This document shows positions 40,616 through 44,464 of a stretch of 64,000 nucleotides of DNA, one piece after another. This stretch comes from a virus. Below the pieces are notes generated by a model that saw only the letters and a list, made by a program, of their open reading frames with translations, was not told the origin of the DNA and searched no databases. Made by a program: the position numbers and the translations under genes. Where the stretch lies: positions 1 to 64,000 of the IMG/VR virus record IMGVR_UViG_3300017917_001194; one strand, written 5' to 3'. How positions within the stretch are numbered: position 1 is the stretch's first letter; every line of letters starts with the position of its first letter.

Positions 40616-40621
40616 ATTGTT

Positions 40622-40697
40622 TGGCAGGGGATGAGTGGATCGAACACTCTCAATGGCGGGATCAAAACCCGCTGCCTTCCCATTTGGCGAATCCCCA
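40622..40697 (-). tRNA. tRNA-Gln(TTG)
   Basis: Cloverleaf, U1-U72 mismatch, CCA. Confidence 0.9.
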
Positions 40698-40755
40698 CTT
40701 GTACTACTTGGCGGTTAAAAATAGTTCGAACCGCAAACTTGAGATAAATATTAGT

Positions 40756-41574
40756 ATGACAAAAAAATATTTTACTCAATCACAATGTAAACATTGTGGT
40801 AAAATTTACACTAAACAGAGAGATTCAAACAGATCTTTCTGCGACAATCAATGTCGTGTAAACTTCCGAATTGCTAACAAAAAAGTTATTATTAGGCCTT
40901 CTAAAACTTGCCCTAAATGTCACACTATTCACAATAAAATAGGAACATTCTGCTCTCGTAGTTGTGCCAATGGACACATTGTTACAGATAAGCATAAATC
41001 TAAATTAATGGACACTATTAATACTAAACTCACTATTAAGAACCAATTCGGTGAACACCCACGAAAATCTGCATTGCCAAAAAATATTGGCAAGATTAGG
41101 CAATTTAATTATGTTGGCCCATATACTAAAATATACTTGTGCACCTGCAAATATTCTGGAAAGAAGTGGTATTCGCCTACAGTTAAAACCGTTCATCCTG
41201 ACTTGGGACGGACACGGAAAGAATACAGTTACTCTTGTCGTTTTCAGTTTGGAATTTCATCATTTCCAGATTGGTTTACTGATGCGTCTGAATTAATAAA
41301 CAAATACGGCTGGTACTCAACTCCCGGGTCGCGCAAAGGAATTAAAAACACAAACGGAATCTCGAGAGATCATTTATATTCGATCACCGACGGATGGACA
41401 AACAATGTTCCTCCCGAACTTATCCGGCATCCGGCGAATTGTGAGCTAGTCCCTCATCAGCAAAACCAATCTAAATATTATACTTCAAAAATAACGCTTG
41501 ATGAATTATATCAACGAATACGCCAATTTAATTTGTTATATGGGCTACCCTGCACCGACTTGAACGGCGACTAA
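40756..41574 (+). mobile_element. HNH-like homing endonuclease (paralogue of 39618-40388)
   Basis: SRDHLYS...HPANCELV; start at ATG 5 nt after TAAATA. Confidence 0.75.
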
Positions 41575-41629: not shown

Positions 41630-41714
41630 TGGTGGAGTATCCAGGGATCGAACCGGGCGTGCCATAAGGCGGGGGATTTACAGTCCCCTGCATCACCGTT
41701 GATGCTTCTACTCC
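41630..41714 (-). tRNA. tRNA-Tyr(GTA)
   Basis: Cloverleaf, long variable arm, CCA. Confidence 0.92.
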
Positions 41715-42213: not shown

Positions 42214-42403
42214 ATATCATACTGAAGCACACTCGAGAGAATGTGCTTTAGTATGCTGTGATTTTTTGTTCCACACAAGGAACTCCATCCTACAGTCCGC
42301 CCATTTGTACTGTTTTAAGTGTAGTACAGGATCTCGTTTCCTATAACCACTCTAAATCGTTCTTGGAATGATTGTTCCAACCATTCTGCAAGCAGTTAGA
42401 TAT

Positions 42404-42620: not shown

Positions 42621-42694
42621 AAAATAAAAACCCCAGGGTGTTTAGTCCTGGGGCTCTTGAATAAAGTTTAAAATACAATTCTATTCAGAACCCC
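42621..42694 (-). terminator. Attenuator: terminator with overlapping antiterminator
   Basis: Terminator AGCCCCAGG-N9-CCTGGGGTT-TTTATTTT (42621-42655); antiterminator GGGGTTCTGAATA (42682-42694) pairs with TATTCAAGAGCCCC (42650-42663). Confidence 0.8.
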
Positions 42695-42797
42695 TGATAC
42701 CGTACACAATATTACCCTCTGTTGGTAGGCAGGCTGACGACCAACGTAATGCGGGCATCTGCTTACTATCAAAGGTTATGTGTCTTAAAGTATTCAT
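42681..42797 (-). CDS. 38-aa leader peptide containing all 20 amino acids
   Basis: MNTLRHITFDSKQMPALRWSSACLPTEGNIVYGIRGSE*; starts a few nt after predicted TSS; last codons form the antiterminator strand. Confidence 0.7.
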   Translation of the reverse strand: MNTLRHITFDSKQMPALRWSSACLPTEGNIVYGIRGSE

Positions 42798-42807
42798 AAT
42801 AGTATGT

Positions 42808-42836
42808 ATTATAGTTTAGATATTTATATCCGTCAA
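42808..42836 (-). promoter_or_regulatory. sigma70 promoter of tRNA operon with nested TAAATA late element
   Basis: TTGACG-N17-TATAAT; TAAATA at 42821-42826 in spacer. Confidence 0.85.
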
Positions 42837-43213
42837 CCTCTTTTGGTAAAATTATTTATCCCTTGTAAATCACTGGTTTCGCCACGTGCTACACGATATG
42901 CGTCCACTGCTCGCATACGAGCTAACATTAGTCTCAAACGCATTTCATCTGTAATTACTACATCATCTTCTGTGGGTGCAATATCTACTCGTGCTTTTAA
43001 TACTGTGTCTCTACGTACAATCATATACTGTTGAGCCACAGTTAAACTGTCATCATCTTCATCGTCGGCAAAATACTTGTGTATGGGCAGGTGACGTGTG
43101 GTCAGCTTGATTACTTGCTTGACTTCTGGCTCTGGTGCGGCCACTGGATCTGAAGCATAAGCAACGGCAAATATTACCGCTAATGCAGCGGTTAAAATAT
43201 ATCTTGTTCTCAT
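42833..43213 (-). CDS. Putative secreted protein
   Basis: Signal-peptide-like N-terminus. Confidence 0.65.
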   Translation of the reverse strand: MRTRYILTAALAVIFAVAYASDPVAAPEPEVKQVIKLTTRHLPIHKYFADDEDDDSLTVAQQYMIVRRDTVLKARVDIAPTEDDVVITDEMRLRLMLARMRAVDAYRVARGETSDLQGINNFTKRG

Positions 43214-43507
43214 TTAGTTTGGTACCAATACAGTTCTATAGCAGTTACAACTAGCATCTACTATGGTTTCATAGTGGTAGCCATATGGTGCTACGGGTTG
43301 AGCAGGTGGATAATACACCGGCTGTGGTTGAACATAAACCGTTCTAGGTTGTGCGAGGGCATAACCCAATACGCCGCCTATCACTATCGGGGCGATCCAA
43401 TTCTGGCCTCCGTGGTGATGTGAATGGTTCCAATGATTCGGATTTGCCTGGCTTGAGTTCGCTATTAACATCATACTTGCAAAAAGCAGTGTGATAACCT
43501 TTTTCAT
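43214..43507 (-). CDS. Putative secreted/membrane Pro-Tyr-rich protein
   Basis: Signal peptide, His-rich stretch, glycine-zipper-like segment, QPQPVYYP. Confidence 0.7.
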   Translation of the reverse strand: MKKVITLLFASMMLIANSSQANPNHWNHSHHHGGQNWIAPIVIGGVLGYALAQPRTVYVQPQPVYYPPAQPVAPYGYHYETIVDASCNCYRTVLVPN

Positions 43508-43570
43508 AGTTGTTTTCCTTTGTGTGGCTCATACTATATTAACGCCTGCCCGCACGAAAAAGTTGACAAG

Positions 43571-43595
43571 AAAAAGGCCCAATTAAGGGCCTTTT
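43571..43595. terminator. Intrinsic terminator after tmRNA
   Basis: AAAAAGGCCC-AATTAA-GGGCCTTTT. Confidence 0.85.
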
Positions 43596-43910
43596 GGTTG
43601 TTTCTGTTACGAGGTAAGTCCTACCCTAAGCAGTGATTAAACTGCTAAAGTTTGGCGTTGTGCTGTACGAGCAGAGAATTTAACGTTCTTACCTGAAACA
43701 GTTACTTCGCCTTTAGATGCGTTTGCATTTACATTTATTTGCTTGGATTACGTCCATCGCCTCTCGTGTTGTCTGCTACAATACTAATTCGCCCGTCGAG
43801 TCTAAATCAGGCCCCTCATAAACATTCTACTTAAAATGCTTATGGTGGACCTGGGGAGGCACTGCCCCTCCCGTCCGAACAACCTTTCTCTTCACTTCAT
43901 ACAACAATTC
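43596..43910 (-). ncRNA. ssrA: Circularly permuted (two-piece) tmRNA; ends approximate
   Basis: Acceptor piece ...GGAGG-GGCAGTG-CCTCC-CAGGTCC-ACCA (ends 43843) precedes GGGCCTG (43814) giving G3:U70; tag ANASKGEVTVSGKNVKFSARTAQRQTLAV* at 43726-43637. Confidence 0.88.
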
Positions 43911-43911
43911 T

Positions 43912-44115
43912 TTACTCTCTACCCCAATCAATATGTGTCCAAATTCTATCATAAATGTAGTACGAACAAGTCCATACTATGTTAATAATGATAGCAGGTA
44001 ATATTGCTTGCGTAGTACTTTGTCCAGTGATCAACAACATTACATAGGTGCTTAGTATAACCCAGCATCTGTAGATTAAAGTTTTTACTAATGTTCGCTT
44101 TTTCGTATCTTTCAT
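43912..44115 (-). CDS. DUF2061-like small membrane protein
   Basis: KRTLVKTLIYR...YYIYDRIWTHIDWG. Confidence 0.7.
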   Translation of the reverse strand: MKDTKKRTLVKTLIYRCWVILSTYVMLLITGQSTTQAILPAIIINIVWTCSYYIYDRIWTHIDWGRE

Positions 44116-44318
44116 AATTCTTTTACCACTCCACGATAGCATAAAGGTATATACCACCACGGTTGACGTCTGGGTTTTGTTAGAGTATATTCTAATACCT
44201 TGCCGTTAGGACTTACCCAGGTATTATGGAATCCTAACCAAGTGCGACTACGATGCCAGCGAATACTTCCGCCCCAACGAAATCGCATCCATAACGCAAA
44301 AACCAAACAATTACACAT
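44112..44318 (-). CDS. Hypothetical protein
   Basis: AGGAG RBS. Confidence 0.6.
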   Translation of the reverse strand: MCNCLVFALWMRFRWGGSIRWHRSRTWLGFHNTWVSPNGKVLEYTLTKPRRQPWWYIPLCYRGVVKEL

Positions 44319-44464
44319 GTGTTAATCTCCTACTATTATGTAGCGTATTTTACACGCCAAAGATTAACACAATATTAAATCTAGCCGACCCACCACCAAT
44401 TTTTTCTAAAATTGGAAACTATTACTAGTATATATGGTTACTGATTACTTGTCAATTTGTATGA

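Follow-up and report, generated by a model that had tools for sequence, protein, structure and literature searches.

A 64,000-nucleotide stretch of viral DNA (positions 1 to 64,000 of the IMG/VR record IMGVR_UViG_3300017917_001194, referred to below as the window) carries, ahead of an array of transfer RNA (tRNA) genes, a compact module on the minus strand, positions 42621-42836, in which a promoter, a short open reading frame (ORF) and an intrinsic terminator follow one another, and in which the 5' arm of the terminator can also pair with the end of the ORF. In our judgement, this module is a conserved, ribosome-dependent (leader-peptide) transcription attenuator placed before phage tRNA genes, a reading to which a probability of about 0.6 is given. 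Its sequence elements are conserved among related phages, the strands of the alternative helices covary, the ORF is maintained across very divergent sequences and the tRNA array follows in synteny.

A first-pass annotation, made from the sequence of the window alone, had proposed at this site a promoter followed by a near-leaderless 38-codon ORF holding all 20 amino acids, and both are present in the sequence (Table 1). The ATG at 42797 lies 10 nt past the -10 box and has no Shine-Dalgarno sequence. All 20 kinds of amino acid have been seen by codon 32 and 33 different codons are used in 38, with no run of regulatory codons for one amino acid in the leader. The same annotation had described a 13-bp pairing between GGGGTTCTGAATA (42694-42682, which holds the TAG stop) and TATTCAAGAGCCCC (42663-42650), overlapping the terminator, and this was corroborated both in the sequence and by RNAfold on the full-length and the truncated transcript; an A/U-rich stretch separates the leader stop from TATTCAAGAGCCCC. 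In fact, no other part of the ORF forms as good a duplex with segment 3 as does segment 2, the 5' strand of this antiterminator (-21.3 kcal/mol, equalled by 1 of 200 shuffles). When the whole leader is folded the terminator is formed (-51.1 kcal/mol, z -3.3), and when the transcript is cut before the terminator 3' arm the 2:3 antiterminator appears (-44 kcal/mol, z -3.6); in these predicted folds the leader of the window switches between 2:3 and 3:4 with the absence or presence of segment 4. The terminator had been missed by the consensus scan because the scan allows loops of up to 8 nt and this loop has 9. An Rfam search (E <= 1) of positions 42621-42836 gave no match, neither to the T-box nor to other known cis-regulatory RNA families.

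The window is part of an 86-kb record with a CheckV completeness of 27%, which implies a genome of roughly 300 kb, and the 65-aa ORF behind the terminator has homologues on contigs of 301-344 kb. The carriers of the module are a clade of uncultivated jumbo phages in which a two-piece transfer-messenger RNA (tmRNA) is also present. In the GenBank phage collection, searched at both the DNA and the protein level, nothing similar to the locus or to the 65-aa ORF was detected, and single-sequence queries for related loci (the 126-aa ORF found upstream of the module, and the 65-aa ORF) gave no matches; the relatives were recovered with alignments as queries. The 65-aa ORF 3' of the terminator was taken as the anchor (a family of 78 proteins, 73 of them in the alignment), and the scan of viral contigs with the anchor alignment gave 35 loci which, together with the window, L007 and L002, make 38 loci with 33 distinct upstream sequences. 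All loci are metagenomic and most were found via the anchor ORF, so that modules in other contexts would be missed. ORF, pairing and terminator are present in 37 of the 38 anchored loci, that is, in 32 of the 33 distinct sequences. The geometry put forward in the first-pass annotation, in which 2:3 competes with 3:4 and the stop lies in or next to segment 2, recurs in these 37 loci and covaries, and the homologous loci, which might have lacked the ORF or the antiterminator, were found to carry them. A covariance model of the 3' half of the module detected one further copy, in L014, 5.4 kb downstream of its tmRNA, and showed the module to be single-copy in the 86-kb record. In L002, the first relative found, the tmRNA is directly followed by the homologue of leader and terminator, the order in L013 and L007 is tmRNA, promoter, leader, terminator, ribosome-binding site (RBS) with ORF, and tRNA-Cys, and in L041 the upstream sequence differs from that of the other loci.

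Over the 32 distinct sequences, 96.7% of the cells in the terminator helix are paired and 6 of its 10 pairs change on both sides, L002 showing two compensatory changes in the stem. The covariation score of 0.339 was reached by none of 500 shuffles (0.237), and pairing falls to 68-69% when the structure is slid by one column. As a separate observation, the sequence of the loop ACUAAACAC and of the top of the stem is kept across clades, once per locus, which is unusual for a terminator loop; it is found in the window (42638-42646, minus strand), L031, L032, L035, L039, L043, L047, L048, L053, L055 and L058.

The antiterminator helix differs between clades in its length and internal loops. In an alignment-free test, the best partner within the ORF was sought for '12 nt plus terminator 5' arm' in 30 sequences (L002 and L025 were outside this test and were added by hand to the partner-swap test described below). 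The partner of segment 3 ends between -6 and +13 nt from the stop in 28 of the 29 sequences with a recorded stop, the exception being L033, the duplex takes in 6-10 nt of the terminator arm across relatives, and the best 2:3 duplex is matched by no more than 10 of 200 dinucleotide shuffles in 25 of the 30 sequences. Moreover, the mean energy of this duplex is -17.6 kcal/mol for cognate and -12.35 kcal/mol for non-cognate partners (0 of 5000 permutations), and since swapping partners weakens the duplex, segment 2 and the terminator arm of the same phage evolve together. In the named 2:3 structure, 74.7% of the cells of a MAFFT alignment pair, against 57% or less when the structure is slid. The same pairing is built from clade-specific sequences: AGGGGTTCTGAATA with TATTCAAGAGCCCC, GAGGGTTGGGATGATTA with TAATCATACAACCCT, TTCGAGGT with ACCTCGGA, AGGGTCC with GGACCCT, and AGGGGTTTCATA with TATGAAACCCCT. 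The stop has two arrangements: type I members have it inside segment 2, and type II members (L026, L028, L007, L055, L041) have it in the 2:3 loop, downstream by 3-13 nt or more. A covariance-model alignment that held 9 antisense matches and no type II members was excluded from the pair counts. As for a 1:2 helix, a tentative pairing of AACCTTTGAT with ATCAGGGGTT can be drawn in the window, and the MLNRKV clade has a covarying helix of its own between codons 3-6 and the Ile-Cys-Glu codons (CGC/TGC, CGC/TGT, CAC/TGT).

The promoter is equally recurrent, 34 of the 38 loci having TTGAC-N17-TAYAAT with ATAAATA in the spacer and an ATG 6-11 nt past the -10 box, preceded by ACTAYT. This short distance suggests that the leader ORF is leaderless. 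The spacer of the window promoter holds TATAAATA (42828-42821), which is present as a single copy in the 64-kb window against 6.8 +/- 2.5 expected, and which may represent either a regulator site or an additional promoter signal overlapping the first.

The leader ORFs of the relatives span 30-53 codons and the frame from ATG to stop is open in every clade, while dinucleotide shuffles stay open in 0.02-0.31 of the trials per sequence; over 11 clade representatives, treated as independent, the product is 6e-12. The window, L013, L007 and L022 all have the residues RGSE, with Arg, Ser and Glu encoded differently (AGG GGT TCT GAA versus CGT GGT AGC GAG), and outside segment 2 the ratio of nonsynonymous to synonymous polymorphism (pN/pS) was 0.50 in one set of 11 sequences and 0.40 in another of 5, a weak purifying selection that is blurred by RNA constraints on synonymous sites. 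The motif TGAATAG supplies stops in two frames, the second of which is used by L056 and L052. With 33 leader peptides as a profile, 60 more were recovered from a protein collection, which gives 91 unique peptides. Trp is found in all 91 and Cys in 90, Met1 and one Trp being the sole invariant columns of the alignment. The distance from this Trp to the C-terminus, counted by hand on the alignment, varies from 11 to 34 residues between clades, and hydrophobicity and length vary as well. The peptide sequence, which had been expected not to be conserved, forms a conserved family, contrary to that prediction. Read-through of the amber stop into a conserved in-frame TAA of the terminator loop was considered and rejected, because, among the 22 leaders with TAG or TGA as their stop, only 6 have the next in-frame stop in the terminator loop or 3' arm, while 8 have it upstream of the terminator and 8 past the T-tract. 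Most leaders end in TAG; that of L026 ends in TAA, and L026 also has a tRNA with anticodon CTA (603-678, tRNA-Pyl according to ARAGORN) adjoining the tmRNA, possibly an amber suppressor.

Behind the terminator, the anchor ORF of the relatives has 59-66 aa and its own RBS, 8-25 nt past the T-tract. The 65-aa protein of the window has no match in PHROG, the PDB or the Atlas, and in Pfam only a sub-threshold one to LTXXQ. Nearly all loci of sufficient length show a tRNA array next, on the same strand. In the window, the 65-aa ORF and its strong RBS, which the first-pass annotation had left unmentioned, lie between the terminator and the first tRNA. The 25 tRNA and tRNA-like genes for 19 amino acids that it had counted become 23 tRNAs for 18 amino acids with ARAGORN, Phe and Tyr being absent, to which Rfam adds one sub-threshold tRNA (41633-41714); the higher count includes tRNA-like genes that neither program calls. 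Among relatives, the first tRNA can begin 3-40 nt past the anchor ORF, and in L053, L054, L057 and L058 it starts at 2678, right after an anchor ORF starting at 2501, too close for a promoter to fit in between. Between the ORF and the first tRNA of the window (42403-42214, minus strand), the consensus scan found no promoter-like site of at least 9/12. A spacer of about 170-240 nt separates the anchor ORF from tRNA-Cys in the window (42214-42403, minus strand), L013 (7060-7233) and L007 (6902-7142), and in other relatives there is almost none.

From these elements we infer a transcription start close to the leader ATG, translation of the ORF, and a direction and a physiological trigger for the switch. 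In the two-state model, which is the simplest that fits all members, the dedicated promoter would give an RNA with its AUG at, or a few bases from, the 5' end, and the 30-53-codon ORF would run into segment 2, which could pair with segment 3, the latter doubling as the 5' arm of the intrinsic terminator. Being made before segment 4, an unoccupied segment 2 would pair with segment 3 and the polymerase would read through. A ribosome keeping pace to the stop would cover segment 2 or, in type II members, where the terminating ribosome would sit between strands 2 and 3, occupy the 2:3 loop, so that the terminator would form and the transcript would end about 180 nt from its start. With a late, stalled or absent ribosome, 2:3 would form first, allowing read-through into the 59-66-aa ORF and the tRNA array. 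Because of this geometry, the output of the switch would rise with a slow ribosome, and the module probably raises phage tRNA output when translation is slow. Starvation or anticodon nucleases may be the trigger, acting through this effect on read-through.

Since its amino-acid set is unusually complete, the leader may sample the overall supply of charged tRNA and not a single amino acid. It is possible, and is proposed here tentatively, that it acts as a pan-amino-acid sampler, in which ribosome delay would report the global charged-tRNA supply and switch the array on demand. All 20 amino acids in the long forms, or nearly all in the 33-codon forms, would be read once or twice, giving a homeostatic control of the viral tRNA supply and, at the same time, a response to host tRNA degradation or to anticodon-nuclease defences; if completeness is what is selected, Trp and Cys would be invariant because the rarest residues are the first that drift removes. 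In the window, the presence of all 20 in 38 residues has a P of 0.005-0.009 against two background models and of 0.015 against dinucleotide shuffles of the ORF kept open; the features of the window, taken singly, are only moderately unlikely (P 0.005-0.03). Among the relatives, all 20 are present in 21 of the 23 unique peptides of at least 38 aa, the exceptions being L037 (40 aa, 18 kinds) and P0127 (49 aa, without Phe). These peptides represent seven lineages (window, L014, L026 type, L031 type, L055, L041 and L037), with 13-42% identity to the window peptide. Per peptide, completeness has a P of 0.005-0.05 against natural stretches of 38-53 residues from the phage's own proteins, and of 0.036-0.25 if Met, Trp and Cys are taken as given; over 11 clades, the Stouffer Z is 3.8 (dinucleotide shuffles) or 2.3 (given Met, Trp and Cys). 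Furthermore, the two clades with the best sampling keep the full set in 30 of 30 ordered pairs (11.5 expected under random substitution) and in 110 of 121 (40 expected). In the L031 type, Phe is found either in PAFW, with SL downstream, or in SF, together with PANW, and the sole sequence combining PANW with SL is the one without Phe. Codon diversity is raised in some lineages only: the window, where 33 different codons have a P of 0.028, L026 and L028 (0 of 400 shuffles) and L007 (P 0.013). Of the two excesses that the first-pass annotation had expected to be conserved, that in amino acids holds for the forms of at least 38 aa and not for the 33-aa forms, which are near expectation, and that in codons over shuffles holds for the window, L026, L028 and L007 and not for the other lineages.

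Several observations weigh against an attenuator of this kind, or against selection on its amino-acid set. Covariation, which had been expected in both helices, is evident for the terminator and, by partner swap, for 2:3; on the alignment, however, that of 2:3 is modest (0.153 versus 0.122, 3 of 500), and for the antiterminator region of the MAFFT alignment RNAalifold gave no consensus structure. Across the 30 sequences, no segment 1 is conserved (cognate -11.7 versus non-cognate -12.1 kcal/mol, 4320 of 5000 permutations as good), so that, unlike in trp, the untranslated default would be read-through. There is no Shine-Dalgarno sequence, and leaderless initiation in the host is assumed. The whole module is missing from L027 (identical to L023), where the flanks are the same and the tmRNA runs into the RBS of the anchor ORF (2155-2503). 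L002 and L025 carry it without a promoter of its own, directly behind the tmRNA, so that the leader AUG would be internal, and transcripts entering from upstream would likewise have an internal leader AUG without an RBS. A protein gene, not a tRNA, comes first behind the terminator, and distal tRNAs are fed by a second strong promoter at 37019-36991, about which the first-pass annotation had itself cautioned and which the consensus scan also finds. As to completeness, the commonest form, of 33 aa (54 unique sequences), has 14-19 kinds of amino acid, with a mean of 17.1 against 16.7 expected given Met, Trp and Cys; a conservative Fisher combination, made by hand from the P values of the dinucleotide shuffles, gives about 0.006, and about 0.03 without the window, and since the clades are related the combined P values overstate independence. 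Residues conserved for other reasons would preserve completeness too. Finally, the product may be the peptide itself, given that its family is conserved, with one invariant Trp, and is under weak purifying selection.

These points bear on the alternatives. A classical attenuator sensing Trp and perhaps Cys, with UGG/UGY as regulatory codons and tRNA-Cys and tRNA-Trp as targets, would account for the near-universal presence of the two residues, Trp being the only invariant one besides Met1, and for the early and often adjacent position of the two tRNAs in most arrays. The UGG codon, by hand count, is always at least 19 nt upstream of segment 2, so that a stall there would leave segment 2 free. 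We nevertheless hold this to be unlikely, for the codon is single and not in a run, its variable distance to the stop (11 to 34 residues) offers no fixed geometry, the array contains about 20 other tRNAs, and the two rarest residues would also be kept under selection for a complete set. Distinctly unlikely, in our view, is an ordinary micro-protein gene of 31-53 aa with a Trp...Cys core and with a promoter and a leaky terminator to itself, in which the pairing at the stop codon would serve mRNA stability or translation and not the regulation of the tRNA array. A conserved family of 91 unique members with a pN/pS of 0.40-0.50 would suit it, and so would a self-contained promoter-ORF-terminator unit that is inserted, lost or promoterless in some relatives like a movable cassette; but the stop-codon strand covaries with the terminator's own 5' arm, which means that the two helices exclude each other, an RBS is absent, hydrophobicity and length vary, pairing blocks have frozen synonymous sites (CGC/TGC and CAC/TGT in the MLNRKV group, for instance), and the position of the module ahead of the tRNA array is the same in all loci.

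The terminated RNA, of about 170-200 nt, might instead be a trans-acting or dual-function small RNA in which the ORF is secondary, as with rnTrpL of Sinorhizobium. The promoter and terminator architecture, the strong folding (z -3.3) and the loop ACUAAACAC, conserved and present once per locus, would agree with this, and attenuator RNAs with functions in trans have been published, as far as the available parts of the reports describe them (PMC6614838, PMC7968998). We give this proposal a slight chance: the ORF is maintained across very divergent sequences, no Rfam family matches, and a function in cis would be compatible with it in any case. That a chance ORF and a chance complementarity lie beside a terminator that merely ends the upstream operon would agree with window features each of which is only moderately unlikely, but it is contradicted by the recurrence and covariation in 37 of 38 loci and by the 91 unique peptides, and its probability is close to negligible.

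Table 1. Positions of the module and of the genes flanking it in the window (strand as read in the analysis)
Feature	Position	Strand	Sequence	Remarks
Sigma-70-type promoter	42836-42808	-	TTGACG-N17-TATAAT	Consensus scan 11/12; boxes TTGACG 42836-42831 and TATAAT 42813-42808, 17-nt spacer
Leader ORF	42797-42681	-	MNTLRHITFDSKQMPALRWSSACLPTEGNIVYGIRGSE	38 codons followed by TAG; stop 42683-42681
Candidate segment 1	42777-42764	-	AACCTTTGATAGTA	Predicted to pair with the start of segment 2 in the full-length minimum free energy fold, window only, -14.6 kcal/mol
Segment 2 (antiterminator 5' strand)	42695-42679	-	AGGGGTTCTGAATAGAA	Contains the stop codon
Segment 3 (antiterminator 3' strand)	42666-42649	-	CTTTATTCAAGAGCCCCA	Overlaps 7 of 9 nt of the terminator 5' arm
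Intrinsic terminator	42655-42621	-		
Terminator 5' arm	42655-42647	-	AGCCCCAGG	
Terminator loop	42646-42638	-	ACTAAACAC	9 nt
Terminator 3' arm	42637-42629	-	CCTGGGGTT	
T-tract	42628-42621	-		
RBS	42614-42609	-	AAGGAG	RBS of the 65-aa ORF
65-aa ORF	42601-42404	-		First gene behind the terminator
tRNA array	42213-35629	-		23 ARAGORN tRNAs, ORFs interspersed; first is tRNA-Cys, 42213-42136
Two-piece (permuted) tmRNA	43955-43569	-		Rfam tmRNA_permuted, 98.4 bits at 43694-43906

The tmRNA of the window lies 0.8 kb upstream of the module and was not called by ARAGORN; in the relatives, the tags that this program reports are either long, ending in ...ATLAV or ...ESFAV, or short, ending in ...FALAA. 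The order of elements in L002 suggested that the leader might be a tmRNA 3' domain split off by an insertion, an idea which was rejected because the window tmRNA is complete with its own terminator, because the more distant phage tmRNAs L003, L004 and L005 have short post-tag regions, and because most modules own a promoter and lie far from any tmRNA. Between tmRNA and module, the window contains a block (42833-43595, minus strand) that is extra relative to L002 and L013, with a two-way terminator hairpin (43572-43595) and two small ORFs, of 97 aa (43214-43507) and 126 aa (42833-43213), both with signal-peptide-like N-termini; a homologue of the 126-aa ORF is also found in L022/L026. Further upstream, a conserved element with a covarying hairpin comes right after a strong promoter (44455-44427) and ahead of a conserved 68-aa ORF (44112-44318). 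It is located at about 44375-44426 (minus strand) in the window, at 11585-11630 in L002 and at about 2430-2480 in L021, the hairpin reading CCAATTTTAGAAAAAATTGG in the window and L002 and GCATTTTAGAAAAAATGC in L021, followed by GTGGTGGGTCGG; in Rfam, it gives only a weak sub-threshold match to wcaG, in L002. Within the tRNA array of the window, an ORF resembling an HNH endonuclease (phrog_23051, phrog_1271) lies on the opposite strand (40621-41574, plus), its ends overlapping tRNA-Gln and tRNA-Trp. A recurrent 93-nt tRNA is called by ARAGORN as tRNA-Ser with anticodon ACT, an unusual anticodon for a bacterial-type Ser tRNA, in L025 (1283-1375), L027 (940-1032), L032 (4559-4651), L039 (2820-2912), L044 (3525-3617) and L050 (3157-3249).

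Leader-peptide attenuation is textbook knowledge. The proposed module shares with the attenuators of amino-acid operons (trpL, hisL, pheL, thrL, leuL, ilvL) a short leader ORF, an intrinsic terminator and an antiterminator that uses one of the terminator strands, in the classical geometry in which the position of the ribosome decides between the helices. It differs from them in having no codon run for a single amino acid, an unusually complete amino-acid set and no conserved 1:2 hairpin, and in that its targets are a small ORF and tRNA genes of a phage. The leaders of ermK, vmlR and bmrB-bmrCD respond to drugs and control resistance genes; it is a slowed ribosome in general, and not the lack of one amino acid, that triggers read-through, as it would in the proposed module. 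In pyrBI and pyrE of E. coli, the lag between polymerase and ribosome is likewise measured by a leader without a special codon run, one that runs through the terminator, so that close coupling leads to read-through; here the logic would be the opposite, because the stop lies upstream of segment 3. TnaC, which also has a conserved Trp in a short leader peptide, needs a fixed spacing from Trp to stop and works by Rho-dependent termination, whereas the present family has an intrinsic terminator and a spacing of 11 to 34 residues, a variability that argues against a TnaC-like arrest. Attenuators with leaderless leader ORFs are described, in the accessible portions of the reports, for Corynebacterium, Deinococcus, the poly-Cys short ORFs of mycobacteria and trpL of Sinorhizobium (PMC4007540, PMC3890552, 10.1101/834739, PMC6614838), and in the last of these genera the attenuator RNAs and peptides are there credited with further functions (PMC6614838, PMC7968998). 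To judge from the same portions, their leader ORF opens at the 5' end of the transcript and controls the genes downstream, as that of the module is predicted to do, but they are bacterial and amino-acid-specific, while the leaderless state of the phage ORF is suggested by the distance from the -10 box to the ATG.

Phage tRNA genes are usually discussed as helpers in codon usage or as replacements for host tRNAs destroyed during infection, and, to our knowledge, the control of their expression is largely unknown. Searches of the literature outside subscription journals and supplements turned up no title or abstract describing an attenuator before a phage tRNA array, and the main text of a survey of huge phages (PMC7162821) contains none of 'attenuat', 'leader' or 'terminator'. 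If the proposal is true, a conserved translation-sensing attenuator at the head of their arrays would give phage tRNA genes a regulatory logic, the first to be found, and it would extend leader-peptide attenuation from one amino acid to the whole translation capacity. At about 215 bp, the module would be a compact and portable part. Moreover, the family of 91 peptides, in which Trp is invariant and 21 of the 23 long forms contain all 20 amino acids, constitutes a natural data set on selection for completeness.

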